Assembly: GCF_030684315.1 (NCBI RefSeq)
Contig: NW_026728269.1
Coordinates: 62,001 to 126,000, forward strand
DNA from: Stegostoma tigrinum
Taxonomy: Eukaryota
Direction of reading: 5' to 3'
Length of the DNA stretch: 64,000 nt
Below the pieces are notes generated by a model. That model searched no databases. It had not been told where the DNA came from and saw nothing but the letters and a program-made list of their open reading frames with translations. Numbering within the stretch: the first letter of the stretch is position 1; the number at the start of each line of letters is the position of its first letter. Positions 1,203-57,418 of this stretch are shown here, piece by piece. The position numbers were made by a program, and so were the translations under genes.

Positions 1203-4200
1203 CTTTTGGGGAAGGGCACAAATAAGTTGCATTAATCCTTCCAGCCTCTCGAGCCGTGGAGCAGTTCTCCTGAGAGGTTTTCCAAGGGTCAGATCACTGT
1301 GATCCCAGCCCAAGCCTGGCCCCTGAACCACGAGCCCCATCAAGATAATTCAGTGTCAAAACCTGACATCTTTCCCCCTGTAAGAAAGGGAGAGGGGGAA
1401 AGAAGGATACAGCAGCTGCTGATGTGTTGGGAGATTTTCACAGCACAGTTTTCACAAGTGCCAAAGGGAGATAACGTTGCTCAGCTCAGTCTCTCCCGAA
1501 GGCACTGCTTTGTGTCAGCAGGCATTGACTCCAGCTCCTCACCTGCAGTCTCACCCACCGTCTGTCAGGTAAGACAGTCAACGTTCCACAGGCAAAGGAC
1601 AGTACCTCGCCATCCCCCGGACTCCACTGAGTGGGTTGCCTGTCCAATTCAGGAAGTAAAGCTCACGTACGTCAAACAGAAACTTCCCCAGAAGGGACTG
1701 AGCAACTTGAGTCAGGTCACAGACCCCACCCGTGCCCACACTGCGACTGAGTGTACAAAGGAAATGCGCAATACCTGTTCCACGGGGACTCCAGCGAGAT
1801 TTGTCATCATCATCCGGGAAACAGCCCCACACACATTGTCCACCACACGCCGATTTTGCTCTCGGGCTATGATAGATGACAGAATGTTCAGAAGGGATGG
1901 GTACTGGCTGGAGACAATGTTAAGGACGGATTGGAGATTGTTTCTCAAACTGCAAGCGTGTTTCCTTCACCTATCAGCACAGCCTTTCAGAGGGAATGCC
2001 AGGAGACTGGAACACAGTTAACAAATAGCAGCTAGCACTAACATTACTGCAGATCAGAGGGACCTCGGTACACATAGCCAGAGATCCACAAAGGTAGCAG
2101 AAGGTGGTGAAGAAGTCATGTTGGGCTGTCTGCTTTTATGAGACAAGGCACTGTATATAACAGCAAGGAAATTACACTGTTTAAAACATTGGTCAGGCCA
2201 CAGCTCGAGCAGTGTGCAGGTCTGCTTAGCACATTACAGGAAGGACATGATTACATTTCAGAGGATGGTGCCTGGGCTGCAGAGTCTGGACTGATAGAAG
2301 ATCAGATGGGCTGGGATCGTTTCTGCTTGGAGCAGGGAAAGTTTGAGAAGGGATGCAATAGGAGTGTGGGAAGATTGTGCGGGCCATGCATTGGTTAGGT
2401 AGGAAGGAGGAGCCAATAACCAGGAGGCATAGATTGAAGGGGAGAGGTAAAAGGCTAGGGGAAGAGTTAAGGAGAGATTTTCTCTTCCATTCAGAGGATG
2501 GTTGGAGTCTGGAACCCACGCCTGAAAGGGCAGCTGACTCAAACATTTGGAATGTCTAAGCAGTTAACATTTAGATATTCACTTGCATTTCCGCAGGCTA
2601 CAGGGTGCTGGAGCAACAGCTGGCATTAGCGGTCAGGTCCTTGTTGACCAGAGCAGGGACAATGTTGTGTGCTGTCCATGAGTCTATAGTCTACAGCTCC
2701 TGCNNNNNNNNNNNNNNNNNNNNNNNNNNNNNNNNNNNNNNNNNNNNNNNNNNNNNNNNNNNNNNNNNNNNNNNNNNNNNNNNNNNNNNNNNNNNNNNNN
2801 NNNNNNNNNNNNNNNNNNNNNNNNNNNNNNNNNNNNNNNNNNNNNNNNNNNNNNNNNNNNNNNNNNNNNNNNNNNAATCCAGGATACTCGAAGATGGCTT
2901 CTTTCCCTTGCTCGGCGAGAACGCCAATGCCAAAGACTGAATTGCTGCGCACCTCATCATCTGTGTCCCGTGCACCAGCCTGCAACATTGGCAGCAGCCG
3001 GGGTACAAACTGTACTGTCGCTGGCCCCATCGCCTGTACCGTTTCAGCAATCGACCCGATGGCAAACGATTTCTCAGCCACTGTGCAGCTAGGTTTCTGC
3101 AACACACATACGACAGATCAAAACCATTCCCGTACAGCCCAAAGGACAGAGGGCAGACATCTCAGAGGAATGCACATCTACCAGAGATTACAGAACCAGG
3201 GAGGGCAAAGGTCATGGAAGGAATCTCGGAAACAAAAAAAGGAAGATTTCAGAACATTGAAGCCACTGAATTCTCCCAATTCCTGCCTTCACTGTGCCAC
3301 CTTGGTCTGCCAGTATCTCTCTCTTCGCCCAGACTGTACTTCTCAGCATGACCCAAGTTTGCCTGTGTCTGTCCCTTCAGCACTCTCTTCAATTCTTCCC
3401 CCTGTTTAAAAACAAACCAGCCTGCTCTGTTCCTCCTAACCCTTCTTCTCCTGCTTCTTGCATGCTGGTTACTTCAAATACAAGCCATTCAGCCCCTCTA
3501 AGCCTGCCTTACCCATTTATGACTGTTGGCTGTGGGGTATTTTGTGACATTTCAACAAGTTACTGACACTGGCCATGGGTTTTCTTGGATAGCAGGAACT
3601 GCAGATGCTGGAGAATCTGAGATAACAAGGTTTGGAGCTGGATGAACTCTGCAGGCCAAGCAGCATCAGAGGAGCAGGAAGGCGGACATTTCAGGCCTAG
3701 GCCCTTCTTCAGGTTTTCTTTAGCCTTTCTGAGCAGCTACCAGCACTAATGTTTGGGGAAGTAGCAGAAACCAGTGCCCTGGTCTGATGTTCATTCCATT
3801 GCGTTGTCACTGCAAACATTGTGAAATTTAATTACCACACCCAAATATTTCACAGCAGAGTACTTGTTTTCAATGTTGGCTTTGAACTGGGTATATGCTG
3901 GAGGGATTGGGGTGGGGAAGTGGGTGAGATAGTAGGGTTTGTTAGTGATGAGCGTGTAGCTGCCTCATTTGTGAATGAACTGTATTGTCAGCAAATAACC
4001 ACTGCCAAATACTAACTCTCGGCCAAGAAGGGAAAAGTGTGGGGAAAGAGAAGAGCAAAAAAAGAGAAAGTGAAAAAGTGCGACTCAAGAAAGATCAGTC
4101 AAGTGAGCGAAGAAGAGTGTGAAAGATCGAGAGCGGGGCAGAGAGCGGGGCAGAGAGCGGGGCAGAGAGCGGGGCAGAGAGCGGGGCAGAGAGCGGGGCA

Positions 4201-7200
4201 GAGAGCGGGGCAGAGAGCGGGGCAGAGAGCGGGGCAGAGAGCGGGGCAGAGAGCGGGGCAGAGAGCGGGGCAGACAGCGGGGCAGACAGCGGGGCAGACA
4301 GCGGGGCAGACAGCGGGGCAGACAGCGGGGCAGACAGCGGGGCAGAGAGCGGGGCAGACAGCGGGGCAGACAGCGGGGCAGACAGCGGGGCAGAGAGCGG
4401 GGCAGACAGCGGGGCAGACAGCGGGGCAGACAGCGGGGCAGACAGCGGGGCAGACAGCGGGGCAGAGAGCGGGGCAGACAGCGGGGCAGAGAGCGGGGCA
4501 GACAGCGGGGCAGACAGCGGGGCAGACAGCGGGGCAGACAGCGGGGCAGACAGCGGGGCAGACAGCGGGGCAGACAGCGGGGCAGACAGCGGGGCAGACA
4601 GCGGGGCAGACAGCGGGGCAGACAGACATGGAAGCATGAAGACTAGCACAGGGCATTGAAAGGATTGCCTGTTACTGCATGGTAAGCCCATTGTAAATGT
4701 ATGCTATCACCTCGTGTTTGGAGCTAGGGCCATTCACGTTCATGATGATCAGGAGACGAAAACTCTGTGCAACTCACAACTGATGGGCCAGAGTAGTCAG
4801 CAACAGAGAGTTTAGTGGTGAACAGGGATGATCAGGTACTGAAATTAATGCTGTCCTTGTACTGTACATGCTAACATCACACCTGGGAGCTCACGAAAAG
4901 GAAACCTCTCTGAGCAATTGGCCAGCTGCCAGAGCCGGACTCTGGGCTTTACTCTTTATGGAACTTCCAAGGTTGTGTCAGGGCGGGCAAGCAGATTGCC
5001 CCAGGGCTCTTTGTGCCACTAAAAGGCGTAACTCGGACACTTTCAGTGCCAATTGGAGAAGCTGGGGAGCGATTAGGATCACTGAGAGTGTCTCATGATG
5101 AGAACCGACTCTGATCAAGCCTTAGCAATGCTAATCATGGAGTGGTCTTCAGCAACAAACAAGTGGTAGGACTCAACACCATCCTCCAAACAGACACTGT
5201 ACCATCCACAGAAATTCACTGAGGCTTCTTAGACAGCAGCTTCCAAACCCACAACAACCATCGCCCAGTAGGAGACAGCCACATTGGAACACCGCCCCTT
5301 GGCACAGTCTCCTCTGATCCAATCACTATCCTGACTTGGAAATATATCGCCATTCCTTCAGGGTCAGAATCATGGAATTCCCTCTACAAGGGACATTGTG
5401 ACTCGAGCTACAGCACATGGACTGCAGCGCTTCAAGAAGGCAGCTCAGTACCCCCACCTTCTCATGGGGCAACTAAGGACGGGGTGATAAATGCAGGGCC
5501 CAGTCCGCAATGCCAATGTTCTGGAACACCTGGAAAAAAGGTAACTAGGGGTTTTACCCCTGCTATTCTGCTCCATGTGTCACTGTCAGCAGTGAGGAGT
5601 ACATTTCGCATTGTCCCTCGGTTTCAAGGCAGGAGACAACCAAATTGACTATAAGTTTCAAACCACGCAGCTGTACATACCGTTTTGCACAGCAACAGGG
5701 GGAGGAAGCCGGCAAAGTACGGGGCAAAGATCTGTCCTCCCACAGCGGCAGCGAGAAGGGGAATGCCCTCCCCTGCATACTCCAGGAGCATGGAGTCGTA
5801 CTCGGCCTGCAAGTGAAGAAAAGACAGGTCAGCCACATGCCTACCAACAGTCAGGAGTCAAGTTATGGGCATTCACACTTCAACTGTGCTCAGGGAAGGC
5901 AATTAACAGTTATAACGGCTGTTGCTTGTGGTGATGGTTAAATAGGTGTTAAAGTGCTAACAAGAGTTAGATTGTTATAAAATACACAAGCCCCAATACC
6001 AACATCGAGGCTGACGATGTTGTCAAGAGACCCTTTTATACAGGGCCTGAGTGGAGAATTTTAAATCCACACCTCCTTATCGAACAGCACAACTGAAGAC
6101 ACATCATCTTGGCAATACCCACAGCAACATCCAAGGAATTCACTTGATTTTGCATCAGTGCCCAAGGGATGCTGATCTGAGCCGCACTTCACAGAAGGGG
6201 TATCAATGAGGGTTTGTAATCAGTGGATGACTGGACAATGATACTGTGGTGGAAGCTGGCAGTATCGGGGGTCAGGGCACCGAGGTTGTGAGCAGTCTCT
6301 GGTTGTAGCCAAGGCCTGGGGTGGAGTCAACGGTGAGAAAACCAGGTCTGTAACTCTGCTCGGAGCCAATGGCGTTGGGTTTGCTGAACGTTCAAGCAGA
6401 GGAATTCCAGTCGTGAAGGTCTGGGAAACGTGGTGACAATTCCATAGCCATGGAAAGGGCAGGGTAGATTTAAGCAGATTGTAGTTGGGGGCAGCAGAGA
6501 GTGTCACGAACGATCATGTGAAAGCTGGTGAGCTCAAACTGTGGGGAGGGTACAGCAGATGGGGGGGGAGGTGGTGGTGGAGGGTGGTGTGCGTAATAGT
6601 TTACAAAGGCAAGCAGAGAAGTCAATATCAGACTTCACTGAGGAAAAGAAACAATGCTGGCAGAAGTGGGTAGGGTGGTGAGTGGTGTCAGAGAACCATC
6701 TTTTTTTCTTTATTCATTGTCGGGATGAGGGTGTCGCTGGCCAGGCAGCATTTATTGCCCAGACGACAGTTCAGAGACAACCACATTGCTGTGGATCTGG
6801 AGTCACGTGTAGGCCAGACCGGGTAAGGATTGCAGTTTTCTTCCTCAAAAGGACATTAGTGAACCAGATGGGTTTCTCCCCCCTCCCCGACAATCGACAA
6901 TGGATTCAAAGTCATCATTCGATTCTTAATTCCAGATATTTTATTGAATTCAAATTCCAACATTTGCCGTGGTGGGATTTGAACCCGGGTCCCCAGGATG
7001 TTACCTGGGTCTCACGATTAACAGTCTAGCAATAATACCACTTGGCTATCGCCTTCCCTTCCAATCTCAGGTATCCTGGGGTTAGGAATGTTCATTAGGT
7101 GGCAAGCAGCAGTTTTGTGGGATCAGAGGGGAGCGTGCAAGAAATGGCAATGTGGACAGGGATGACTAAAAAGAGGGAACACAGCTCTGAATGTAAGCAG

Positions 7201-10200
7201 GCAGAAATAGATGGCACGCAAGGATGAGGAAGGGGTAGGCCAGAGATAGGTGGGCAGATTAAAGCATGACTCTGACCCACAAAAGGAGTGACTGGGACAA
7301 GTGACCAAAGGCATAGGTAATAACAAGGAGACACAGACACAACGAGATAGAGGAGAGAAATTCCAGAACTTGGGAGCTACAGAGGATTCAGAAGGAGATT
7401 AACCAGGATGTTGCTGGGTATGGAAGGCTTAAGTCATCAAGCCCTTCCTTACAGGCTAGGACTTTTCTCACTGGAGAGTGACACGATAGAAGTTTATAAA
7501 GTAATGAAAGGTGCGGATAGAGTTGATATGAATTGTCTTTTCCCTGAGATGGGGGTTTCAAGACTAGGGGACATATTTTTAAGGTGAGAGAAGAGAGATT
7601 TTAAGAAAGACATAACAGGCAAATGTTTCACGCAGAGGGTGATTTGTGTGTGGAATGAACTTCCTGAGGAAGCCGTGGTAGAATTACAATGGTTAAAAAC
7701 CATTTGGATGGCCATATGAACAGGAAAGGTTTGGAGGGATATGAGCCACGAGCAGGCAGGTGGGACTAGTTTACTTTGGGATTATGCTTCGCATGCACTG
7801 GTTGGACCAAAGGGTCTGTTTCCATGCTGTATGACTCTGTGACTCTAGGCTGCAACATGGCAAAGCCCTGTGATGGAACAGTCAGGCAGAGGTCATGAAG
7901 ATGCGAACAAGGGTTTTTGCTCCATCTCAGCTTACATGCAGCTACGTTCAGTGATGTTAAGGAGGAGGAAATGGGTGGCTTGACTGCATGGTCAGAATAT
8001 GACACGACACCAAGTTAACAAACAAACTGGCTTATTCTCCATCTGTCTCCATGCAGAGGAGTGAAATGGATGGTTAGGGGCAGACTTCTGAGCATGGCCC
8101 GAAAGCAATGGCTACAGTCTTCCCATTTTTAACTGGAAGCAATTTCTGTCTCCCCAGTATTGGATGCAGATAGGCAGGACAATAACTTCGAGATTATGGA
8201 AGAGTCGAGGGAGGTGGTGGGCAAGGTAGAGCCGGCCACCGTCAGCGTAGATATGAAAATTAAGGGGGGGCTTTCAGGTATTGCAATGAGAAATGCGAAT
8301 GGGTTAGATCCTTGGGGACATCAGTGGTAACAGTACGACCGCAGGAAAGGATGGCTCATCGCAAGTGACAGAGTTACACAAAAATCTCGCACTGCTCATG
8401 GTGAGGGTGCAAGGAAATGTTTAGAAGGATCTAAAGAAACACCCGGGAGGGGAGAAAACGTCACATTAACAGGTCAGAGCTGAAGTGCCACCACCACTGG
8501 CATCTTAATCATCCTTTCAGTTCCAAAAGCGCATTGTTTGGACTGGGATTTGCAATTCCCTGGCCTCCCTTTCCCCGAACCCCAACCCCCTTAAAGGCAG
8601 ATCCTTTTGTGTTGGTGCTAGACTCGTGTTGTAACAGGTTAAACCTGCTCTTAGGCAAATACCAAGATCTTGCCTGCCTGTTGAAACACAACAGTAGCTA
8701 TGTAAAACATCCAAGAGCCCTCTGCCGTTCCAATTCACTGCAAACAAACAGTCAGGTGTGGGGAAAATACAACGCTCCAGGCTGGATCGACAGCAGCCTG
8801 CCCTTTAATCCTGCGTCTAGCTGCATTTTTACATGGAGCCGCACTTGGTTCCTGCTTCAGACAAGTGAAGTAGCGCTGCTTTGTGTAAAAGTTATTTGCT
8901 TGGGGAACATGGGCCTGACAGAGAGGACACTGTGCCTCGGAGCACTAAGGATCGCCAGCAATCTTGCCTGCTCAACAGGATCTGTGCTCCTACAGTCGGT
9001 TAGTGGACAGACCATTCTACTACTCCTGTTCACCGACATCTGTATCACAGGTATAGCATCAAAACGAACCACGTTCCCTCATCCTTGTGGTGGCTTTTGT
9101 GCATCAGGCAAATCCACTGCACTGCTGTTATATGGAGAACTTTGAGAACCATTGAAGATCGAGGGCAGATTCAAAAAGAGGGGCTCAAAATCATGAAGAG
9201 CTTTGATAAGAGTAAAGTAACGAGAATCTGCTTCCATTACACGTAAGCAGAGAATACAATTTTAAAAGAACCAGCTGAAAGATGAGAACGATTTTTGCTT
9301 GTGCAGAGTTTTGATCTGGAATACATTGTTCAAGGGAGTGGTAGAAGTAAACTTAAAGCCGAATTTCAGAAGAAAACTGGATAAATACAAAAGGGAAATA
9401 TGTAAGTCAGGGAAGGAGAAAGAACAGTGATGGTGGGGGCAGAAACTAGTGATTGGGATCCTCTATCAAAGGCACAGGCAATTGTTTCTGTATCTCACCT
9501 CTTCAGGATCTCCCACAGCAAGCTACTGCCAATGAGAGATTTTCTGAAGTTATGTTTCTAGAGTAGTGCAAGAAATGCAGCCCACAGACGGCAGAGTAAG
9601 ATCGTGAAAATGCAATCAGACAGAGACCACATCATTTGCTTTAGTCATGGTAACTGAGCAGAAAATCTTTTCCGGGTCATTGGGTCAAAGTCCCTTTATT
9701 TGGACACAGGATTATTTACATCCCACCGAGAAACCGACAGTGCATCTGGATGTGAGTTTGCTCGCTGATCTGGAAGGTTAGTTTTCAGACGTTTCGTCAC
9801 CATTCTAGGTAACATCATTAGTGAGCCTCCGGTGAAGCACTGGTGTTATGTCCCGCTTTCTATTTATCTGGTTAGGTTTCCTTGGGTTGGTGATGTCATT
9901 TCCTGTTCTCTTCTTTTTCTCAGAGGATGGTAGATTGGCTCCAAATCAATGTGTTTGTTGATGGAATTCCAGTTGGAAGCCATTCTTCTAGGAATTCTCG
10001 TGCGTGTCTCTGTTTGGCTTGTCCTAGGATGGATGTGTTGTCCCAATCAAAGTGGTGTCCTTCCTCATCTGTATGGAAGGATATGAGTGATAGTGGGTCA
10101 TGTTGTTTTGTGGCTAGTTGATGTTCATGTATCCTGGTGACTAGCTTTCTGCTTGTTTTGGTAGGGGGGAGGGTAGGGGGGAGGGTAGGGGGGAGTTGGG

Positions 10201-13200
10201 GGTTTGCGGGTTATGGGGGGAGGGGGGAGGGGGGAGGGGGGGGAGTGGGGGGTGGGGGTTGTGGGTGGACGGGGGAGTGGGGGGGGTGGGGGGGTGGGGG
10301 GGAGGAGTGGGGGTGTGGGGGGAGGAGGGGGAAGGGGGGGGTGGAGTGGGTGGCAGAGGGGGGAGTGAGGGGAGGGAGTGGGCAGGAGTTGGGGTGTTGA
10401 GGGTGGAGGTGGGTAACGGAGGAGGGGGTTAGGAGGGGTGTAGGAGGGGAAGAAGTGGTAGGAGAGGGGTAGGGAGTAGAAGGGGGGTAGGGGTTAGAAG
10501 GGGGGTAGGCGGTGGGGTTAGAAGGGGGTAGGTGGGTAGGATGGTAGGATGGGGGTAGGGGGTAGGATGGGGGTAGCGGGGGCGTAGGATGGGGGTAGCG
10601 GGGGCATAGCGGGTAGGAAGGGGGGGTGGGGGTAGGAGGGGGGAGTGGGGGGAGTAGGGGGGAGTAGGGGGGAGTAGGGGGGAGTAGGGGGGAGTAGGGG
10701 GGAGTAGGGGGGTAGGGTGGGAGGAGGGGGAGGAGGGGGAGGAGGGGGAGGAGGGGGAGGAGGGGGAGGAGGGGGAGGAGGGGGAGGAGGGGGGGTGGGG
10801 GGGGAGGAGGGGGATGGGGGAGAAGGGGGGTAGGGGGTAGGAGGGGGGGTACGGGGTGGAGGAGGGGTACGGGGTGGATGAGGGTGGGTTTAGGGGGTTG
10901 GGGAGATTGGTGGGTCGGGGTGGTAGACGGGGTGGAGGGGAGGTTAGGGGTTGGAGGGGGTGGAGGGTGAGGGGGGTGGGGGTGTTGAGGGGGTTCGGGG
11001 GAGGGAGGCAGGGGGAGAGAGAGAGAGAAGGAGAAAGGGAGAGGGGATGAGTGGAAAGGAGGGGAGAGAGAGTGAGAGTGAGTGAGGAGTTGGGAGGAGG
11101 GAGAGGGGTGGGGTCTGGGGGGGAAGGTGAGTGGGGGGTGGAGTGGAGGGAGGAGGAGGGTTGAGGGGGAGGGGGAGGGTTGAGGGTTTCTGCTTGTTTG
11201 TCTAGAAAGCTTGCCACCAGGATACATGAACATCAACTAGCCACAAAACGACATGACCCACTATCACTCGTATCCTTACATACAGATGAGGAAGGACACC
11301 ACTTTGATTGGGACAACACATCCATCCTAGGACAAGCCAAACAGAGACACGCACGAGAATTCCTAGAAGCATGGCATTCCAACCGGAACTCCATCAACAA
11401 ACACATTGATTTGGAGCCAATCTACCATCCCCTGGGAAAAAGAACAGGAAATGACATCACCCACCCAAGGAAACCTAAACAGATAAATAGAAAGCGGGAC
11501 ATAACACCAGTGCTTCGTCGGAGGCTCACTGACGATGTTACCTAGAATGGTGACGAAACATCTGAAAACTAACCTTCCAGATCAGCGAGCAAACTCACAT
11601 CCAGAACCTCAACCTGAACTACAAATCTTCTCAAAACTCGCTACCGACAGAGCATGTTTATGCTCTCGGCTGAGAGCACAGCAATGCTTTGGGATTGTTC
11701 TGGAATAGATTCTGCGGGTAGTCTGTGCCCAGATCCCTGGATTGGGATTGTCTGAGGCGCGCACATGCCTGTTTTAGATTGATGTGAAAGACAGTACAGT
11801 TGCAGCGATCACTGATACACGGCGGTGAATGGAAGAGCCTGGCACCGAGCCAGGAAGCCTGGGCTAGCTCCGAATCCAGAGTAATCCATGGCAGGCACCT
11901 GCCTAGCAGTATTATCACCAGATTATTAACCCAGAGACTCGGGTAACATTCCGGGAATCTGGGTTCAAATCCACCACGCCAGATTCAATAACGAAACAAA
12001 ACAATTTTGAAATTAAACATCTTGCCGATTGTTGGGGGAGAAAGCCACGTGGTTCACCTCCATCCTTACCTGGTCTGGCCTACACGTGACTCCTATCGAC
12101 CACAATGTGGCTGGCTCCTCTCCCAACCCCAGGACAAAAATTAAAAACAATTTGAAAATCCTCTCAGGTCCAGCGGCCAGGCAGGCGTCCAGGTTCCTTC
12201 ACAGCAGTAAAGTATCAGGATGGCAATTCACAGAAGCCATTTTCATTCTGTTGTGTTGTAACAGAGCTGAACAGTTGCTCCTTTCAGTCTAGCTGTATCC
12301 ATAAAAGTATGTCTGTACTGTCAGGTAAGTTTATGATGTATTATTTACTGGAACTTGGGTTCAAAATGATAGACCAATGAGATTTTGGTTTTCAGTGCCT
12401 CTTTAAGAAGGGTCAGAAGGTTATTTGGAAGGGCGAGTTAAAGACAGCCTTTCCAAGAAATAATGTGACCAAAGCAAAATCAGTCAACAAGCCACTCAGT
12501 GAGATGAGTGCTGTTTATCGTTGACAAGAAAAGGGGAGGCCAGGCACACAAGCAGGTCAGAATCAGGAAAGATCAACTGCAGCAAAGGGCAGTTTTAACG
12601 CTTGTGGAAATCTTTAGAACTGGGAAGAGATCCTAATGTGCTTTTAGCAGTGTCAAGGTAGTCAGCCGGAGAAAAGTAAGTGGTTTACCCTGCGGGTCTT
12701 GGGAAAAGAGAGTACCAGTGACAGTCACAGCAGCTGAAAGTGCAGGAAATCTCTGAAAGAAAATACTGAGTTCGAAATACACAATGAAAAGATCTTAAAG
12801 TGAATAGCAGAGGGATATTTCACTGGGATAGAATGTCTGCAAAAGGACATTACTTTTTTCTATACCAAGGAAAGATCTTACCAAACTGTCTAGATTTATA
12901 ATTTTTCCCCCTTTTCCTTTCAGATAATAAATATTTGTTCTTCTAAGAAAAGAACACTGACAACCTCATTTGAATATAGTCAGTCAAGCAACTGCCACAG
13001 TAACCAGATTTCAAAAATAAAACCTGTGGTATCAAGCGAGAATATTTAACACCACACAGTTGATGCAAGGGAATGAGAAATGCTAATAGTATCCAGGGTT
13101 ATGAGAGAGTTCAAAGTGTGTGAAATTCAGAGCCGTAAGGTAAGCAACTATAACTCTATAGCAGCACTAAAAAGAGAGGTAGACAGTGTACGGTGAGCAA

Positions 13201-16200
13201 GAGAAAAATATCACAAGAGTGACAGTAACACAAAAATGCAGGAGAAGGAGGGGAGAAAAGCAAAAAGAATTAGAGAAAGACAGGGATCATATGCAAGGAA
13301 TAAAGCAAAGCTGTAATTCCAGTGGATGTCAAATTGTATCACTACATTTATAACCTGAAAACTTCTGACTGCCTTATCTGGATGTGTTTAACTTTCAGTA
13401 CTGGAAAGGTTGAATATTAACGATTGAATATCAATCTCTGAAACCCCATCCATCTTATTGTGTAAGCTTTGATGTGCTAGGTGAGGGGGTTATGGAACCG
13501 AAATGTGGAGACAGAATTAACATACAAATGGTCTCACTGGAAAAGTGGGACAAGCTCAAGGAGCCAAATTGAACAGGGAGCACAGTCTTTAATGTTTAAG
13601 TGGCAGTTGACTGCAAGAGGTGAATTTGCACATAAAGGCCTACAGTTACCAAACACCTAAAAGACCATGTTTTCTGTGTCCTCTTTAGGATACCTCTTCT
13701 TCTGCTGGTTCACAGAGCTGCAACTGGCAAACAGCCAGGAGGTGATTTCACTCCGATTTACTGCTTTTCTCAATGAGACATACAACGCTGTCACTTTCCT
13801 GATCCTGGCTCTGATTGTTGCAGAGACTCACTTCACCACCAGATTCCAGCGGACGGTGCCCCTGGGAAAGCACCAGGTCTCTGCCCAGCCATCTCCTGCC
13901 AGCCACCAGCTAGCCTTGATGAATGGTGTCTACACACTGCTCTGCTGGATCATTGCTGCTTCTTATGGGGCTCGCCATTACCCGGATGCCGCCCGCTCTG
14001 CCCGTCGGTGCCCTGGGGAACACTCCTTCGGCTACCTCCGCTGTCTGCAGGGCTTCTACCTGCCAGATCCTTTCCTCGTGCTTGTTGGGTTAATGGTCAC
14101 GACCAGCTACATCCTGTGTCGGGGGACGTACACAGACAGCTTGGAGGTGCAGCACCAGGTTCCCACATCAGCTCCACCTTCAGGACCTCAAATCTCAGCA
14201 GAGTCATCATGTCCTTATCTAAAGGTTGGCCAAACACAGACAGCATGCCACCCTCAGAGCCCAGCGGCTCAGCCTGGCTACCTTCTTCCTGGGCTGGTTG
14301 CTGCACTAATGCTATTCCCGGATCTCCCGTACTTGGGACTGACGTCGTCCTTCATCAGCTGCTTTGAACACCTTAGCCTGTGCTTCTTTGCACACATTTT
14401 GAAACACTCCCAACATGGTGCAGAAACGGTGCAGCAGCAGTCTGGTCTGTACAGATTGATCCACACGCTCCTGTGCCACTGGAGAGCACGGACAGACACA
14501 GCAAGGAGCTCTCCTTCCCCAGAAGGAATTTCAGAATTTACTGGAGAGATCAAACACTGACTGAGGGGAGCCACTTTGCAGAACACATCTGTTCTGTCTG
14601 TAGGAACCTTCCAGCTGCTCACCATTTTAATCGACCATCTTGCCCCCATGCTAACAGTTGCATCCCGGGTCTGCTACAGTTTTCTAATGACGCTCATTGT
14701 GAGCTGAAGGAACAGCCCCTCAATTTCCTCAGAGACACGATACAGCCTCCTGGACTTGATATTCAGAGCTTTCCACCTTCTCAGCATGACCTACGTTCTC
14801 CCCATCACCACCCACCTCGGCCGTGTCTTGCTCTTTTTCACTCCTCCATTTACACCTATGTGGTATCTCGATCTCTCGTCTACCACCACAGGCACTCCCT
14901 TTTGTCTTTTGCTGTGGGCGCCCTCACAATCTGTCCCCCTCGGTCTGCCTCCCGAACGCTGTCAACAACATTAAAAACTACCACTCTCTGGCCTCCTTTT
15001 AGGTTCTGGCAAAGTCACTGGACTCAACATATTAACTCAGTTTCTCTCTCCACAGAAATGCTAAGTTTTTCCAGCAGTTTAAGACTTTATTTCCAAATTC
15101 CAACATCCGCAGTATTTTGCTTTTCGTTCACAGTTTAGCACCCTGTCTCATGGGATCACGCCTACTAATTTACTAGCCCATCAACGTGTGCGCTTGTATG
15201 CGTTTAAACTGTAATAAACCTGACAGCACTTACTGGCTTAAAGCCTGCTCCTTTTTTATGTCTGATGCTTGAGTTTAAGTTACAGCATGAACCTGACAGC
15301 AAGCTTTGTCAAAATGGGATAGGACGAATTACTAATCTCATAGTGATAGTGTTCCTGGGAAGCAGCAACCAATAACGAGATTGGATTTTACAATTATGAT
15401 TATGAAAGTGAACTGGCCATTCTGGTGAAGAGATCATGGCTATAGAGTAGCAAACACTTAATGGAGTATTTGAGGATGTGCAGAATCGATACATCCCAAC
15501 AAATAAGAGAAATTGTAAGGGATAGGTCGGTTCACTCATAGTTAACTAAAAAAGCTAAAGATAGTATTAAGCTCAAAGAAAAAGAAAAGACATCATTCTG
15601 CACAGATAGACAGCAGGTCAGAGACTGACAGAACATAAAAATAGCAACAAATCACGTATCATAGAAAAGGGCCTTTGGCCCATCGAGTCTGCACCCAAAA
15701 TCAATTCTAAATCTACTTTAATCCTGCTTGGTCCTTAACCTTGAATGTTCCCAAAAATTACTAAAAGATTAATAATGGTAGGAAAAAAATTAGATTAAGG
15801 CCAAAAATATTAAAAACAGGGTATATTTTAAAAACAAAGAGAACACAGTAAGTGGTGGTCACGTAGAAAAGGAGTCAGGGAAACTAGTAATGGAAGATAA
15901 AGAGATGACAGATATTTTGCACCGGTCTTCATGAGAGACAAGTAGCATTCTGGAACTAGCTGTAATTCAGAGTTGAAAAGGAAGGAACTTCAGAACATTA
16001 CAGTTACCTGGGAAGCAGGAGGGTCGGGGCGAGGGTACAGAGGTTCCTTTACATTGGAGAATAACTAATATAATTCTGTTATTGAAAAAGGGACGGAGAA
16101 AGAAAGCAAGAAAGTACAGGCCAGTTCACTTAACATCCAGCATAGGGAAAATGTTAGAGCCTATCTTAAAAATGTTATAACTGGGCTTTCGGATAAATTC

Positions 16201-19200
16201 AAGCCAACATAGGGAGATCATGGAGCCCAGTGAAGAAGTATCTTGTGCTGTAGATAATCTGGTGAACGTATTGTTCTTAGGATTTCCAGCAGGTATTTGA
16301 TAAGGCTATCACATTAAAGTTTACTGAGGAAAATAAAAGCTTATAGTGTAGGCACGGCTAGAAGATTGGTCGTCTTATGGGAAGCAGAGAGTGGGAATAA
16401 GTGTTTGAGAGAGAGATAACAAGGTGTGGAGCGGGATGAACGCAGCAGGCCAAGCAGCATCAGAGGCACTGGAAAGCTGACGTTTCGGGTCAAGACCCTT
16501 CTTCAAAAATGTTTGAGTGTCTTAGTATGTGAATCGCAGAAGGTTAATAAGCAGTTCTAACAATTAACCAGGAGAGCTAATATATTGGCAAAGCTTCCAC
16601 CAGCCACAGTCTGAGAGGTAAGTACATTTTCAACAATCCAAAACAAAGAAAAAGCATAGCAAGCATATCACATTGGAGTAGTGCAGGCAAAGCAGATAAA
16701 TCAACAGCAAGTCATAACATTAAGCGTCAACGAGAGATCGACTGGAATCAGTGGAATTTAAAACTGGAAGCAGTTGACATTTGTTCTGGGAGTTTGTTCA
16801 GTATTTGCAAAATCCAACCGTTCCAAACTCTCTCAGCACACATTCGCTTTCCTCTTACCTCTTGTTCTTCGTCCGATTCGGTTTCCTCGTTTTCTGGATC
16901 TTGGCAAGCTGTCTGCAAGACACAAGGTGCACAGTCAGCCCCAAGCAAAAGCAGTAACGTATAATGACACGGCATCGCAGAGGGGCACTGGGACAAAACG
17001 TGGACTCTGGGCTGTTTAAGGAGATGTGACTAGAAATGCCTGGTCAAACAGATATGTTTCTCAGTCACAGCATTTGTCCGTCACCTTTTTCTGCAGCACG
17101 TTCCGAATGGCTTTGCAGATCTCATCCAGACGCCCTGGCTCCTTCAGTGTGTCCCCTTTGCAGTGTTTCAGCACATTGTTCATGGACTCCAGGATCGTCA
17201 TGACCACAAGGCGATCCTTCTCCTCGTGAATGGTTTTCAAATAGTTTGGAAACACCATGGCTAGCAACTTCTGGAAACCTGGAGGGAACAGAGACACAAG
17301 ATGCATGGACTGGAACAGGGCTGGGCACGGGGATGCAGGGAGGAGGTAAGCATTTCAAAAGGACAACTATTCTCCACTGACTTCTTCATATCTCCCAGTC
17401 ATACACTGCACCAGAACCATACCAGCGAGCAATCAGGTAATCTCTTCCCAACAAAACCAGAAAGCAAAGCAAACTAAACAAAGTAAACCAAGCAACAAAA
17501 ATCTCTGCTGATTCTAACTAATGACCACAGGATGAAAAAGTTAGAATAGACGAATATGGAACTGCTCATAACTAAAGCAGCAGAGACCACTAGTTAGAAC
17601 CGCAGAATCTGGCGCACTGCTAAACTGTCACAGCTAACTGGCCACAATGTCTCAACTTCCAGTCGCTTGTGATAATGTGGTATACCTGCGCACAATGAAG
17701 GAGCTGAAATCTGCCACACAGCCAATCTTCTATGCATGCTAGTACCTTGCTTCTAACATCACGGGCCCTTATCTTACTCAGCAGCCTCCTGTGTAGCACC
17801 TTCTTGAAGCCCAGGTAGATAACATCCATTGGCTCTCCTTGGTCTACCCTGCTCATTACTTCCTCAAAGATTTCCAGCAGATGTATCAGGCATGGCCTCC
17901 GCTTGATGAAACCATGCTGACTTTGCCCTATTTTACCATACACTACCAAATATTCAGCAATGTCATCCTTTACAATGGAGTCCAAAATCTTACCCATGAC
18001 CCAGGTTAGGCTAATCGGCCTGTAATTTTACATCTTTTGCCTTCTTCCCTTTTTAAAACAGGGCTGTCATGTTAACTATTTTCCAGTCCTCTGGGACCCT
18101 CCCTGGCTAGCAATTCCTGAAAGATCACCACAAACGCTTCCACTATCTCTTCAGCTATCTCCTTTAGAACTCTGGGGTGTAGTCCATCTGGTCCTGGTGA
18201 TTTATCCACCTTCAGGCCATTCAGTTTTACTGGCACCATTTCCTTGGTGATGGCCACCGTACTCAGCTCTGGTCCCTGGCTCTCTTGAATTTTTGGGATA
18301 TTGCTCATGTCTTCCATTGTGAACACTGATGCGAAGGAATTATTCAGTTGCTCAGCCATTTCCTTATTCCTACTATCTCTCCGGCTTCATTTTCCAGGGT
18401 CCGATGTCTACTTCTGCCTCTCTTTGCCCTTTATATATCTAAAGAAACTCTTACAGTCTTCATTCATATTATTGGCTAGCTTACCCTCATATTTAATCTT
18501 CTCCCTCCTTGGTCTTTGTAAGCTTCCCAGTCCTCTGGTTTCCCACAGCCCTTCGCCACATTATATGCTTTCTCTTTTGCTTTTATGCTCTCCCTGACTT
18601 CCCGAGTCAGCCATGGCTGCCTCATTCTCCCTGTACCATGCTACTTTTGCCTAGGGATGAATTGTCGCTGCATCTCCTGAATTACTCCCAGAAACACCTG
18701 CCATTGCTGTTCCACTGTCTTTCCTGCTAGGCTCCGCTCCCAGTCAATTCTTCCCAGCTCCTCCCCCATATCTCGCCTTTATTCATCTGTAATACCATTA
18801 GCTCTGAGTCTATCTTCTCCCTCTCAATTTGCAGAGTAAATTCTATCATATTACGGTCACTGCCTCTTAAGTGTTCTTTTACCTTAAACTCCATTATCAA
18901 GTCTGCCTCATTGCACAACACTAAATCCAGTATTGCCTTTCTCTCGTGAGCTCTACTGCAAGCTGCTCCAAAAAGTCATCTCGTAGACATTCCACAAACT
19001 CCTTTTCTTGCAAAGCACTGCCAGCATGATTTTCTCAGTCCACCTGCACATTGAAATCCCCCATGATCACTGTGATTTTGCCTTTCTTACACACCTTTTC
19101 TATCTCCTGGTGTACCTTGCACCCTAGCTTCTGACTACTGTTTGGAAGCCTGTACACAACTCCAATTTATGATTTTTTTTTACTCTTGTGGTTCCTCAAT

Positions 19201-51100: not shown

Positions 51101-52242
51101 CCCCGACCCGAGACCGCGTCCGACCCCCCAAACATCTTCCCCCCGACCCGAGACCGCGTCCGACCCCCCAAACATCTTCCCCCCGACCCGAGACCGCGTC
51201 CGACCCCCCAAACATCTTCCCCCCGACCCGAGACCGCGTCCGACCCCCCCCAACATCTTCCCCCCGACCCGAGACCGCGTCCGACCCCCCCCAACATCTT
51301 CCCCCCGACCCGAGACCGCGTCCGACCCCCCAACATCACCATCACCACCCCCCCAAACCGGGAAACTGCCTCCCCTCCAACCCCCCACCCCCACCCCCAC
51401 CATTCTCCCGGGCCCCGGAACCGCCCGTACCCGAAGGCCACGCCCGTCCCCCGCCCGTACCCGAAGGCCACGCCCGCCCCCCGCCCGTACCCGAAGGCCA
51501 CGCCCGCCCCCCGCCCGTACCCGAAGGCCACGCCCGCCCCCCGCCCGTACCCGAAGGCCACGCCCGCCCCCCGCCCGTACCCGAAGGCCACGCCCGCCCC
51601 CCGCCCGTACCCGAAGGCCACGCCCGCCCCCCGCCCGTACCCGAAGGCCACGCCCGCCCCCCGCCCGTACCCGAAGGCCACGCCCGCCCCCCGCCCGTAC
51701 CCGAAGGCCACCCCCGCCCGTACCCGAAGGCCACGCCCGCCCCCCGCCCGTACCCGAAGGCCACGCCCTCAAGCCTCGCCCCTCTGTCATGTTATGAATG
51801 ATTCTGGAATGACCCAAGGAGACCACATGGGACAGGCGCTGTGCCAGCTACGGCCCCGCCCCCTCCTGTGATTGGCGAGCACCCAGCCCCGCCCTCTCGC
51901 CGCGGCGATTGGCGGCTGACTCGCGGGGTGGCTGCCCCCGCCTGTGATTGGCGGGCACCGAGGCGCGGCCCCACCCCTCGCCGCGACGATTGGCGCCCGA
52001 CACGGGAGAGCCCCGCCCGCGATTGGCGGGCCACGAGGCACGGCACCGCCCCTGTGCCGGTGATTGGCGGTTGCCCCGGGAGGCCACGCGCCGCCGTTTT
52101 GAAAGGCGCTCGCGCTGCCGCCGGCAGTTGGCGGAGTGAGGCCTAGTCTGGGGCGAGCCTCACACGCTTCCCTTACCTGCTGGATCAGCGCCGTGTCCGG
52201 CTCCAGCAAGTTGTTCAGGATCTTCTCCAGGACCTCGGCCAT
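1098..52242 (-). CDS. IPO4: Importin-4 (karyopherin-beta family, HEAT repeats); 28 coding exons in window, 3' end beyond window start
   Basis: 28 exons bounded by GT/AG, all splice phases compatible, 3039 nt = 1013 codons with no stop. N-terminus [31 protein letters not shown]...[12 protein letters not shown]; acidic loops; motifs such as [30 protein letters not shown] and [15 protein letters not shown] match importin-4 as I know it. Confidence 0.95.
1775..1907 (-). CDS. IPO4: IPO4 exon 27
   Basis: [44 protein letters not shown]; phase 2-0. Confidence 0.93.
1908..2887 (-). other. U12-type (minor spliceosome) GT-AG intron 26 of IPO4
   Basis: 5' splice site GTATCCTG; branch point TCCTTAAC (1926-1919) just upstream of the AG; no long polypyrimidine tract. 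Confidence 0.88.
2704..2875. other. Assembly gap
   Basis: Run of N. Confidence 1.
2888..3096 (-). CDS. IPO4: IPO4 exon 26
   Basis: [18 protein letters not shown]...AEQGKEAIF; phase 0-2; donor GTATCCTG (U12-type). Confidence 0.92.
3588..3712 (-). mobile_element. Short Penelope pLTR fragment
   Basis: ggaactgcagatgctggagaatc...ggccaagcagcatc...cccttcttcag, diverged copy of 35600-35724; similar fragments at 16412-16506 and 61037-61085. Confidence 0.7.
4128..4627. repeat. 12-bp tandem repeat
   Basis: (GCGGGGCAGA[G/C]A)n, ~41 copies. Confidence 0.97.
5681..5806 (-). CDS. IPO4: IPO4 exon 25
   Basis: [42 protein letters not shown]. Confidence 0.93.
6700..7055 (-). mobile_element. Deu-SINE-like shark SINE
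   Basis: B box gggttcaaatccc, tggaatttgaattcaat, tggtctggcctacacgtgactccagatccacagcaatgtgg, tail gggcaataaatgctg; related copies at 11915-12115 (+) and 20930-21200 (-). Confidence 0.6.
7380..7842 (+). mobile_element. CR1 LINE 3' fragment
   Basis: accaggatgttgc...tggaatgaacttcctgaggaag...gggtctgtttccatgctgtatgactct; similar remnants at 2050-2600, 23480-24140, 24790-25150, 40830-41460 (-), 43000-43800 (-), 46700-47100 (-). Confidence 0.75.
8909..9050 (+). CDS. Nested GPR160-like multi-pass membrane receptor, coding exon 1
   Basis: Strong Kozak AACATGG; [47 protein letters not shown] (TM1 N, TM2 D); phase-1 donor CAG|GTATAG. Confidence 0.7.
10159..11186. repeat. G-rich low-complexity tract
   Basis: Almost C-free G/A/T sequence with GGGGGAGTAG and GGAGGAGGG subrepeats. 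Confidence 0.9.
11529..11562 (+). ncRNA. Hammerhead ribozyme motif of second Penelope family
   Basis: CUGACGA-U-GUUACC-UAGAAU-GGUGAC-GAAA-CAUC; mirror copy at 9788-9821 (-) has CUAAUGA...GAAACGUC. Confidence 0.65.
13689..14560 (+). CDS. Nested GPR160-like multi-pass membrane receptor, coding exon 2
   Basis: Acceptor tttctgtgtcctctttAG in phase 1; 290 codons to the TGA with several hydrophobic helices ([28 protein letters not shown]; [14 protein letters not shown]; [17 protein letters not shown]; [25 protein letters not shown]). Confidence 0.78.
14537..15130 (+). mobile_element. Old degenerate Penelope-like fragment
   Basis: TGEIKH*...HFAEHICSV...HHFN...GLLQ...LKEQPLNF...QPPGL parallels [19 protein letters not shown]...LQEQQLIF...QPNGI of the intact copies. 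Confidence 0.7.
15300..16400 (+). mobile_element. Old CR1-like LINE fragment
   Basis: Degenerate RT-region sequence (tacaggccagtt..cttaacatc..gggaaaatgttaga; gatttccagcaggtatttgataagg). Confidence 0.55.
16859..16912 (-). CDS. IPO4: IPO4 exon 24
   Basis: [18 protein letters not shown]. Confidence 0.92.
17085..17278 (-). CDS. IPO4: IPO4 exon 23
   Basis: [26 protein letters not shown]...AIRNVLQKK; phase 1-0. Confidence 0.93.
17706..19560 (-). mobile_element. CR1-like LINE ORF2 (APE endonuclease + RT), degenerate
   Basis: [24 protein letters not shown]; [19 protein letters not shown]; [27 protein letters not shown]. Confidence 0.88.
21806..22093 (-). mobile_element. tRNA-derived V-SINE (HE1-like)
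   Basis: A box gctcagtggct, B box ttcgattcc, V-domain gggtttcctc..tgctccagtttcctcccacagtcc, CR1-like tail. Confidence 0.75.
22281..22386 (-). CDS. IPO4: IPO4 exon 22
   Basis: [35 protein letters not shown]; phase 0-1. Confidence 0.93.
23077..23134 (-). CDS. IPO4: IPO4 exon 21
   Basis: [19 protein letters not shown]; phase 2-0; donor GTGAGT. Confidence 0.9.
24252..24329 (-). CDS. IPO4: IPO4 exon 20
   Basis: [25 protein letters not shown]; phase 2-2. Confidence 0.93.
26163..26272 (-). CDS. IPO4: IPO4 exon 19
   Basis: [36 protein letters not shown] (acidic loop); phase 0-2. Confidence 0.92.
26888..26999 (-). CDS. IPO4: IPO4 exon 18
   Basis: [37 protein letters not shown]; phase 2-0. Confidence 0.93.
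27681..27804 (-). CDS. IPO4: IPO4 exon 17
   Basis: [40 protein letters not shown]; phase 1-2. Confidence 0.93.
29035..29148 (-). CDS. IPO4: IPO4 exon 16
   Basis: [37 protein letters not shown]; phase 1-1. Confidence 0.92.
29394..30102 (+). mobile_element. Young CR1 LINE 3' end with an internal copy of its own tail
   Basis: [19 protein letters not shown]..., RFTRMLPGM...GDLIETYKI...[14 protein letters not shown]; ends in (TGTTCTA)n; tail 29979-30102 duplicated at 29524-29647. Confidence 0.9.
30254..30367 (-). CDS. IPO4: IPO4 exon 15
   Basis: [37 protein letters not shown]; phase 1-1. Confidence 0.93.
30431..31655. repeat. 42-bp minisatellite
   Basis: CCCACCCACAGCACTGACCGTCCATTACGCCCCTGCTCAGAC, ~29 near-identical copies. 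Confidence 0.97.
32424..32553 (-). CDS. IPO4: IPO4 exon 14
   Basis: [43 protein letters not shown]; phase 0-1. Confidence 0.93.
32972..33080 (-). CDS. IPO4: IPO4 exon 13
   Basis: [36 protein letters not shown]; phase 2-0. Confidence 0.93.
33165..34126. repeat. ~40-48 bp minisatellite filling IPO4 intron 12
   Basis: CCCTGTTACAGAGCGTACTGATGGGTGTTCACACCGCAGT(CT)n with variable CT tract. Confidence 0.95.
34193..34302 (-). CDS. IPO4: IPO4 exon 12
   Basis: [36 protein letters not shown]; phase 0-2. Confidence 0.93.
35397..35450 (-). CDS. IPO4: IPO4 exon 11
   Basis: [18 protein letters not shown]. Confidence 0.93.
35696..35724 (-). ncRNA. Minimal hammerhead ribozyme (inverted pLTR copy)
   Basis: Reverse complement of the 37318 motif; same sense as IPO4 pre-mRNA. 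Confidence 0.7.
37318..37346 (+). ncRNA. Minimal hammerhead ribozyme in Penelope pLTR
   Basis: CUGAUGA-A-GGGUCUAGGCCC (stem II)-GAAA-CGUC. Confidence 0.75.
37967..38128 (-). CDS. IPO4: IPO4 exon 10
   Basis: [54 protein letters not shown]. Confidence 0.93.
38798..38881 (-). CDS. IPO4: IPO4 exon 9
   Basis: [28 protein letters not shown]; 84 nt. Confidence 0.92.
40412..40513 (-). CDS. IPO4: IPO4 exon 8
   Basis: [34 protein letters not shown]. Confidence 0.93.
41575..41640 (-). CDS. IPO4: IPO4 exon 7
   Basis: [22 protein letters not shown]; 66 nt. Confidence 0.9.
42682..42861 (-). CDS. IPO4: IPO4 exon 6
   Basis: [21 protein letters not shown]...YMGTDEV; 180 nt; phase 0-0. Confidence 0.93.
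43975..44104 (-). CDS. IPO4: IPO4 exon 5
   Basis: [43 protein letters not shown]; phase 2-0. Confidence 0.93.
44517..44631. repeat. 12-bp GA/GC tandem repeat
   Basis: (GCGCGAGAGAGA)n. Confidence 0.9.
44645..44840 (+). mobile_element. tRNA-derived V-SINE (HE1-like), 3'-truncated
   Basis: gtggctcagtggttagcactgctgcctcacagc..gggttcaattcc..gggtttcctccgggtgctccagtttcctcc. Confidence 0.78.
45070..45111 (-). CDS. IPO4: IPO4 exon 4
   Basis: [13 protein letters not shown]; 42 nt; phase 2-2; donor GTAAGT. Confidence 0.9.
   Translation of the reverse strand, partial: FEAGGSAVSAAGT
45250..45672. repeat. Degenerate ~70-bp tandem repeat
   Basis: GGGTTAGATACAGAGTAAAACTCCCTCTACACTG...CATCAAACACTCCCA units; related units at 28000-28130 and 40105-40230. 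Confidence 0.75.
45871..45950 (-). CDS. IPO4: IPO4 exon 3
   Basis: [26 protein letters not shown]; tttag/gtacgc; phase 0-2. Confidence 0.92.
47392..47478 (-). CDS. IPO4: IPO4 exon 2
   Basis: [29 protein letters not shown]; AG/GT; phase 0-0. Confidence 0.93.
47870..48107 (+). mobile_element. Probable solo LTR remnant
   Basis: Begins TGTTGTAAC; TATA-like GATATAAG; degenerate polyA (tgtaaatgaa); end resembles a shark LTR terminus recalled from memory; TSD not evident. Confidence 0.4.
48150..51770. repeat. Compound C-rich minisatellite in IPO4 intron 1
   Basis: CCGAGACTACGT(C)nAACAT(C)n array 48360-50600; ...CACATTA(C)nGACTACGT block 50600-51000; GACCCGAGACCGCGTCCGA block 51030-51330; 30-bp CCGCCCGTACCCGAAGGCCACGCCCGCCCC block 51421-51770. 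Confidence 0.93.
52177..52242 (-). CDS. IPO4: IPO4 exon 1 (coding part)
   Basis: AGGATGG Kozak context; [22 protein letters not shown]; donor GTAAGG. Confidence 0.93.
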
Positions 52243-56135: not shown

Positions 56136-56187
56136 TGCCTCTGGTTGACCAGGAGCTGAACACAGTGCTGGCAGAGTGACTACTCAC

Positions 56188-56541
56188 CGGGTATAAGCAG
56201 ATGGATGCCGTTACCAAGGAAGACCATGTTGTCTTTGACAGTGGCACAGTAGTAGGTGCCAGTGTCTGCCTCAGAGATGCTGCTGATGGTCAGCATGTAG
56301 CTGCTGGTCGCCGAATCCCTGGACGGTAGGTAACGGTCCGTGTAGCCTGTGCCCCGGTTGCCCTGTCCGCTGGTCCAGTGCACCAGTACCCATCGTGGCT
56401 TCTGCCCGGGCCTCAGCTGGTACCAGAACCCGCCATCGTCCGCGATATTCACGTTCGTCACCCAGCAGGTCGAGGTGGCGGTGCCTCCTGCTGGCACCGA
56501 GGCGGACAGGGGCTGACGCAGGACTGGGTTTGAGGTGCTGC
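56188..56541 (-). CDS. Germline-joined VJ exon, Ig light-chain-like (sigma-cart/type I-like V)
   Basis: V-set hallmarks PVLRQP, STC, FWYQ, RGTGYTDRYLPSRDSATSSYMLTISS, DTGTYYC, followed directly by J-like FLGNGIHLLIP; cttccAG acceptor and G|GTGAGT donor (phase 1-1); no RSS between V and J. Confidence 0.9.
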
Positions 56542-57418
56542 CTGGAAGAGAGGAACGTGTCAATGGAGGACGGAGTGGGAAAGAAAGGAGTGTCAGTGGG
56601 GAGGGGTGGTGGTCAGGGATGTGGGGTGGGGGGAGAGATCGCACTGACAGGAGGTTGCAACGGGAAATGGGGGGGGGGGTGCATTTGTATAGCCTCCCGC
56701 AAGCGGCTTGGCAGTGCGCCATCCAGCGTTTCAGTTTAAGGAGACTCAGCTCCCACTCCCTCATCTCCGTGTCCCTCCATTTCCTCATGGCCAGCCCACC
56801 CAAACCCACACATCGCTGGGCACTACAGGACGAGACTGAAGTGCCCGCAGGAAAGCCAGGCAGACACTGGGTAGAACAAAAAAAAATCCAAGCAGACAGT
56901 TGCCCAAGGTTACAGTCAAACCTGGGAGATTGAGCCCTTTCAAGTTTCACAACATCCTTCCTGTAGCAGGGAGACCGGGATTGAGCGCAGTATTCCGGGT
57001 GGCCCGAACCAACGTCCCTGTACAGCCCCAACATGACCCTCCCAGCTCCCTGTACTCAACGCACTGACCCATAAAAGCCAGCGAACCGAACCCCTCCCTC
57101 ACTGCCCTGTCTCCCTGCAACTCCACTTTCAGGGAACTATGTACCCGCTTCCCCCGGGTCTCTGTGTTCAGCAACACCCGCAGGGCCCTCCCATGAAATC
57201 CTGCCCTGATGGACCTTCCCCAAAATCCAGCGTCTCACGTTGGATCTAAATCCATCTGCCCCTCCTTGGCCCCGTCCGATCGAGGCCGTGTTGTGCTCCT
57301 AGGGTAGCCGCCCTCGCTGCCCGCTACGCCCTCCAGTTTCGGTGCCACCCTGGGTTGGAATCCTTTGAAGGCCAGGCTGTGAGCCTTGAGGGGAAGGAGC
57401 CCGCAAACGCCAACTAAC

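Follow-up and report, generated by a model that had tools for sequence, protein, structure and literature searches.

A 64,000-nucleotide stretch of the genome of the shark Stegostoma tigrinum (assembly GCF_030684315.1, contig NW_026728269.1, positions 62,001 to 126,000 of the forward strand; hereinafter referred to as the window) carries the importin gene IPO4 on its minus strand and, inside IPO4 intron 24, a plus-strand gene of two coding exons (8909..9050 and 13689..14560) encoding a protein of 337 amino acids. On balance, we favour the view that this is an intact antisense gene from an old single-copy family, and that its product is a predicted seven-transmembrane (7TM) protein, likely derived from G-protein-coupled receptors (GPCRs) of class A, likely without canonical G-protein activation, and possibly a distant paralogue of the orphan receptor GPR160. 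Databases already contain the gene model, and nesting in introns is common, so neither is new. New with respect to the literature searched is that scattered "uncharacterised" entries make up a single family, conserved in vertebrates, of predicted 7TM proteins from which most class A switches are gone.

Structure of the nested gene

Coding exon 1 (8909..9050, plus strand) runs from Met1 as far as the first nucleotide of the Gly48 codon and encodes transmembrane helix 1 (TM1) and most of TM2. Coding exon 2 (13689..14560, plus strand) encodes the end of TM2, TM3 to TM7, a cysteine pair in the second extracellular loop (ECL2), and the C-terminal tail up to the stop codon. The two are separated by a phase-1 GT-AG intron of 4,638 bp (9051..13688, plus strand), with the donor CAG/GTATAG after 9050 and the acceptor TCTTTAG/G before 13689 (slash, exon border); of the nearby combinations that were tried, 9050/13689 alone gave a GT-AG pair. 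The joined exons comprise 1014 nt, corresponding to 337 codons and a stop codon without internal stops. Around the ATG (8909), position -3 is A and position +4 is G, and the frame 5' of it was open from 8435 and contained no in-frame Met. Every coordinate given in the preliminary description of this locus, as well as its strong-Kozak ATG, phase-1 splice sites, and uninterrupted product of 337 residues, was reproduced.

A pyrimidine-rich candidate splice acceptor ending in CAG (8846..8860, plus strand), located 48 nt 5' of the ATG, suggests a putative non-coding upstream exon. A candidate polyadenylation signal, AATAAA (15213..15218, plus strand), was the first such motif after the stop codon, with a second at 16332; it has T-rich sequence downstream and lies within the host intron, suggesting that the 3' end of the nested gene may also lie there.

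The encoded protein was identical (0 differences) to the RefSeq model XP_048380778.1, "uncharacterized protein LOC125449153" of Stegostoma tigrinum, and the gene, which had been described as easily missed, was therefore already annotated. In 8 shark species, full-length models continue across the 9050/13689 junction, and the RefSeq models share the N-terminus. Contigs from the reads of four sequencing runs over 5000-17500 were continuous through the introns, as in genomic DNA; they covered both exons without differences, and represent one sample, possibly the source of the assembly itself.

The intron of the nested gene also contains parts of a very high-copy repeat at 9760-10150 and 11190-11640 (contig depth up to ~10^6), between which sits a G-rich low-complexity tract (10160-11186). 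The frame of the repeat resembles that of a Penelope-type element; a Pfam search of the repeat gave no match.

A conserved family of uncharacterized proteins

Stepwise searches recovered relatives from sharks (9 species), caecilians (2), bichirs (2), paddlefish, gar, and many teleosts, in agreement with the earlier assignment of the protein to an uncharacterised fish family. Every name seen was "uncharacterized" or "hypothetical", one teleost member being named si:ch211-193i15.1, and a profile search placed RefSeq LOC125449153, LOC125487518, and LOC121270591 in the family. Among 33 family sequences, D43, W134, C155, C166, and L69-R70-F71/F74/T78-Y79 were invariant or nearly so. Seven of the 33 (3 fragments and 4 near-duplicates) were left out of the glocal profile ranking, the hhalign comparison with class A receptors, the anchored and spacing counts, and the tree, which used the remaining 26. 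In a quick tree, these 26 members formed a single group with branching roughly in line with the species: sharks, caecilians, and ray-finned fishes were separate from one another, bichir and paddlefish branched outside the teleosts, and eel was represented by two copies.

Used as queries against the shark genome, the bichir member (E-value 1.3e-13) and the Xiphophorus member (E 0.04) each had the nested locus as best match, and the paddlefish member did not return it. No second copy was found when the window protein was searched against its own genome. Other weak genome matches to the family queries all had E > 0.3; the one at L004 was examined and rejected, the matched frame not being a long open frame. 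Further, isoforms from bichir have different N-termini up to the codon that aligns with Gly48 of the shark protein, suggestive of an intron position common to bichir and shark.

Identity between the window protein and those of five other sharks was 0.71-0.85 in the helices and 0.25-0.42 in intracellular loops 2 and 3 (ICL2, ICL3) and the C-terminal tail, a roughly two- to threefold higher conservation in helices. This helix-biased conservation is as expected under purifying selection, and we infer that the nested gene is under selection. Judged by these sequence comparisons, the family is an old, single-copy one of jawed vertebrates. No members appeared from amniotes, frogs, rays, chimaeras, or lampreys in a profile search that also missed three of the sequences in its own query alignment, and lineage loss is therefore not claimed. 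The literature search turned up no publication that mentions the family by name, including under ch211-193i15; supplementary expression tables, which lay outside this search, may list its genes.

Members from different groups also differ in their loops. In many teleosts, unlike sharks and caecilians, the TM3-TM4 loop (ICL2) is long and strongly acidic, with poly-Glu/Asp runs, and TM2 starts with a Cys cluster (C-C-C-C). Compared with teleost members, shark members have a shorter ECL1 and differing loops.

Predicted fold and database comparisons

Both hydropathy and structure prediction yielded seven segments, close to the approximately seven hydrophobic stretches noted earlier. The hydropathy plot showed seven peaks (Kyte-Doolittle 19-mer values of 1.18-2.03), of which TM1 was weak and TM6 and TM7 abutted. 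AlphaFold with 33 sequences gave a predicted local distance difference test score (pLDDT) of 76 and a predicted TM-score of 0.71, with seven core helices (3-21, 31-55, 61-100, 118-154, 175-202, 243-255, and 267-289) and a C-terminal helix (299-320). With 10 sequences only, the pLDDT was 39, and the fold search from that model was disregarded. When the fold was compared using VIA-align, GPCRs accounted for 42 of the best 50 rows, covering model residues ~1-276 with TM1-TM7 in order. In the ESM Atlas, exon 2 was nearest to 7tm_1 clusters (0.91).

Several results weigh against a GPCR origin. The best VIA-align match (Z 7.7, root-mean-square deviation 8.2 Å, 201 aligned residues) was in the range of common helical arrangements, and the Foldseek matches, mostly GPCRs, included none at E <= 0.001 (best 0.1). 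ESM shared-feature counts were 112-150 of 256, true family members typically having 170. No relevant Pfam family, 7tm_1 included, matched any of the 33 members (12 single chance matches), and none was found with the exon pieces and 8 shark proteins. No PDB chain matched the family profile at E <= 10, and the hhalign probability of the family profile against a class A profile was 0.4-0.6%. The significant GPCR or GPR160 profile match expected from the preliminary description was thus not obtained (Pfam 0/33; hhalign 0.4-0.6%). Since the fold and ESM neighbours are rich in GPCRs but the Pfam and PDB sequence searches were blank, descent from GPCRs is, on these models, likely rather than demonstrated.

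Class A receptor motifs and alternative explanations

For motif comparison, 28 class A receptors of this shark genome that lack introns served as controls, comprising top 7tm_1 scorers only. Two of 30 control loci, in which the longest frame was not the receptor, were kept in the glocal profile ranking and dropped from the hhalign, anchored, and spacing comparisons. Anchor positions were set by hand, and the Asp and Trp were placed by hhalign as well: against the 28 controls, it put D43 on position 2.50 and W134 on 4.50 unaided, without significance.

The residues to which the preliminary description had drawn attention were all present, i.e., R14-x3-N18 in TM1 (N18 being 1.50), F41-T42-D43 in TM2, W134 in TM4, and C155/C166 in ECL2, these two cysteines being nearly invariant in the family. 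In the anchored counts, D2.50, W4.50, and an acidic residue (D/E) at 3.49 were found in 26/26 members, and N1.50 in 11/26. R3.50 was present in none of the 26 members vs 28/28 controls, the window protein having E93-T94-H95 there. Position 3.25 was Leu in 25 members and Pro in one, whereas all 28 controls had Cys. No [ND]PxxY or DRY-like string was found in any of the 7 members scanned. Moreover, position 1.50 lay only 18-20 residues from the start in 22/26 members, as against 37-150 in the controls. Conserved prolines after TM6 were aligned to P6.50 in one hhalign run and to ECL3 of GPR160 in another.

In class A receptors, R3.50 and NPxxY form the G-protein cavity, and C3.25 holds ECL2 over the ligand pocket. 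With R3.50, C3.25, NPxxY, and the N-terminus missing since the shark/bony-fish split, the usual G-protein switching is likely absent, and the term "functional orphan receptor" used earlier goes too far for proteins lacking the main activation motifs in 26/26 family sequences. Two considerations temper this view: the absence of G-protein coupling is deduced from motifs, and signalling is still possible in receptors with altered DRY motifs. By membership tests, the protein files neither with class A GPCRs nor with GPR160, although its architecture is likely that of such a receptor.

It is rather unlikely, though worth weighing first among the alternatives, that the protein is a highly diverged orphan receptor that still couples to G proteins, with substitute micro-switches and a ligand reached via ECL2 or from the membrane. 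The seven helices, the GPCR-dominated fold matches, the D2.50, W4.50, and acidic 3.49 retained throughout the family, and the long ICL3 and C-terminal helix of the model would fit such a receptor; the family-wide loss of R3.50 and C3.25, the missing NPxxY, the N1.50 in just 11 of 26 members, and the short TM6 of the model (243-255) would not.

Less probable again is an independent origin as some other polytopic membrane protein (transporter, chaperone, or enzyme-like), the GPCR likeness reflecting a common helical arrangement. Such an origin would account for the lack of any significant sequence or fold match to a GPCR and for the 8 non-GPCR rows among the best 50 fold rows, but leaves unexplained why the Asp, acidic, and Trp anchors stand at class A spacing, why both ESM queries returned GPCR clusters, and why the fold matches cover TM1-TM7 in order. 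A decayed or chance open frame, the main role of which, if any, would be antisense transcription affecting IPO4, is very improbable, as nothing direct speaks for it apart from its antisense position, while the frame is intact and the protein is conserved across jawed vertebrates with a bias to the helices.

Relation to GPR160

The earlier label "GPR160-like" was borne out in part: ESM neighbours, loop spacing, and two residues remain as a lead, and the alignment tests and a separate GPR160-like gene elsewhere in the genome go against it. This separate gene, an intronless frame of 343 codons at G000:C17:60695076-60696104 (L028:8076-9104, plus strand), lies 119 kb from SEC62 exons and is followed on the other strand by PHC-type FCS and SAM exons; PF16616 matched only a PHC locus on contig C36, and on C17 it is the SAM and FCS matches that point to PHC. 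The gene had no Pfam 7tm_1 match but 92% hhalign probability against class A receptors. From the human order SEC62-GPR160-PHC3 and sequence likeness, we take it to be GPR160. On that identification, with the SEC62-PHC place occupied by the C17 gene, orthology between the nested gene and GPR160 is refuted. Further, the nested gene has a phase-1 intron in TM2 and lies on contig C282, whereas the C17 gene is a single open frame; a family hidden Markov model run over 200 kb beside SEC62 found nothing significant (best E 0.12). That the nested gene is the shark orthologue of GPR160, as its similar length and the ESM neighbourhood of the bichir member might suggest, is thus hardly credible, given the position and 92% class A match of the C17 gene and a BLASTP comparison of the two proteins that was not significant.

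A more distant relation is a different matter. GPR160 clusters held ranks 2-3 (0.91) in the ESM Atlas for the bichir member. The anchor spacing was 26/53 in 16/26 members, the same as that of GPR160, vs 28-29/49-51 in the controls. A basic residue (K/R) at 1.46 and Tyr at 3.35 were shared by 26/26 family members and GPR160 and by 0/28 controls. In the anchored comparison, GPR160 itself lacks R3.50. A tree including 12 of the 28 controls placed GPR160 between the family and class A, a result that joins long branches and is possibly false.

Against paralogy stand the following points. The residues at 1.46 and 3.35 were picked after looking, and the window protein itself has a spacing of 25/50 rather than 26/53. 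The hhalign probability of the family against GPR160 was 0.6%, and the nested and C17 proteins, as mentioned, did not align significantly. GPR160 ranked 10 of 31 in the glocal profile comparison (Z 0.99) and 6 of 29 by anchored TM1-4 score (Z 0.95; rank 1/29 on TM3 alone), and matched 10/27 invariant columns, the controls matching 10-14. All GPR160 comparisons rest on a single GPR160 sequence. As far as sequence can tell, paralogy with GPR160 may be about evenly balanced between true and false. GPR160 itself remains an orphan: PMC13494238 describes its pairing with CARTp as unsupported in two later studies, and PMC10935005 reports no response to CARTp among 12 G proteins.

Host gene and neighbouring features

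The IPO4 model consists of 25 minus-strand exons with GT-AG borders throughout, giving 864 stop-free codons from its start in coding exon 1 (52177..52242). Exon 24 (16859..16912) and exon 25 (5681..5806), both on the minus strand, flank the host intron (5807..16858, minus strand), and exon 25 matches residues 825-866 of human importin-4 (E 1.6e-16). Among IPO4 introns 1-24, within the window, intron 24 is the longest (11,052 bp; next 5,002 bp), as stated in the preliminary description, and the whole coding region of the nested gene lies inside it on the opposite strand. According to a study of nested genes (Montibus et al., 2024, PMC11694760), more than a tenth of the genes of mouse and human are hosts, the nested genes lie mostly in the largest intron of the host and slightly more often antisense, and human and mouse share 25-31% of those host/nested pairs that have orthologues. 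The nesting in IPO4 is ordinary in kind; nothing related was found in the literature on IPO4 as host of a nested gene.

Several IPO4 introns are occupied by long GC-rich tandem arrays with periods of 12-50 and composite periods; in the window, such arrays were located at 1-1043, 4132-4625, 30427-31654, 33165-34126, and 48163-51768. A single minus-strand exon (56187-56543) with an AG acceptor and a phase-1 GT donor, some 4 kb upstream of where IPO4 starts, encodes a whole immunoglobulin V-set domain (Pfam V-set, E 6e-15) in which the last strand is J-like, and its PDB matches were antibody variable domains. This exon could be a germline-joined V-J or part of a non-rearranging V-type receptor gene. 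Contig C282 carries at its right end a RING exon (zf-RING_5) at L078:3715-4167 (plus strand) and a further exon at L079:8244-8660 (minus strand). We take the former to be like CCNB1IP1/HEI10 and the latter like TTC5; together with IPO4, they are reminiscent of the gene set of human 14q11-12.

Proposed mechanism and significance

The main reading, a degenerate class A-like 7TM protein, can be extended to a mechanism. In the proposed structure, TM1 would act as an N-out signal anchor, and a C155-C166 disulfide within ECL2 would replace the TM3-ECL2 bridge. A bundle without R3.50 and NPxxY would be unable to form the usual G-protein cavity, and because of this, the protein might serve some other membrane protein as its partner, modulator, or trafficking aid; alternatively, it might function as an arrestin/scaffold-type receptor. 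The location in an IPO4 intron would likely be incidental, with the nested gene relying on a promoter and a poly(A) site of its own. The fullest version of this account, in which the family is an ancient single-copy sister lineage of GPR160 that lacks the N-terminus, the TM3-ECL2 disulfide, the DRY Arg, and NPxxY and works as a G-protein-independent "pseudo-receptor" regulating a partner membrane protein, is tentative, and we hold it possible but doubtful.

If the family is paralogous to GPR160, it would constitute a second, more degenerate member of a receptor lineage with a disputed ligand, and would offer a fish model for asking how a protein shaped like a GPCR works without G proteins. If it is indeed the sister lineage of GPR160, si:ch211-193i15.1, a gene with a zebrafish-type name, would be a direct handle on the family and on the role of the still-orphan GPR160.

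Comparison with known systems

Like the host/nested pairs in PMC11694760, the gene lies wholly within the largest host intron (of introns 1-24 here) on the opposite strand; it differs in occupying a late intron (24), whereas the pairs described there show a bias to 5' introns. The entries in RefSeq and the teleost entry si:ch211-193i15.1 have the pattern L-R-F-x-x-F-x-x-x-T-Y, T-D, W, and Cys pair in common with the window protein, and carry no function, domain, or family name. With class A GPCRs (7tm_1), the family shares seven ordered helices, D2.50, an acidic residue at 3.49, W4.50, and the ECL2 cysteines, but it has no 7tm_1 match, R3.50, C3.25, or NPxxY, almost no N-terminus, and a short TM6.

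In comparison with GPR160, no significant alignment was obtained, and the family lacks the Cys3.25, the Tyr3.51, and the 37-residue N-terminus before 1.50 of that receptor, as well as its class A similarity (92%), intronless structure, and SEC62-PHC position. In contrast, the two have in common a basic residue at 1.46, Tyr3.35, often Tyr4.56, the absence of Arg3.50, and the absence of a Pfam 7tm_1 match, together with the 26/53 loop spacing of ray-finned members and the position of GPR160 as an ESM neighbour of the bichir member.

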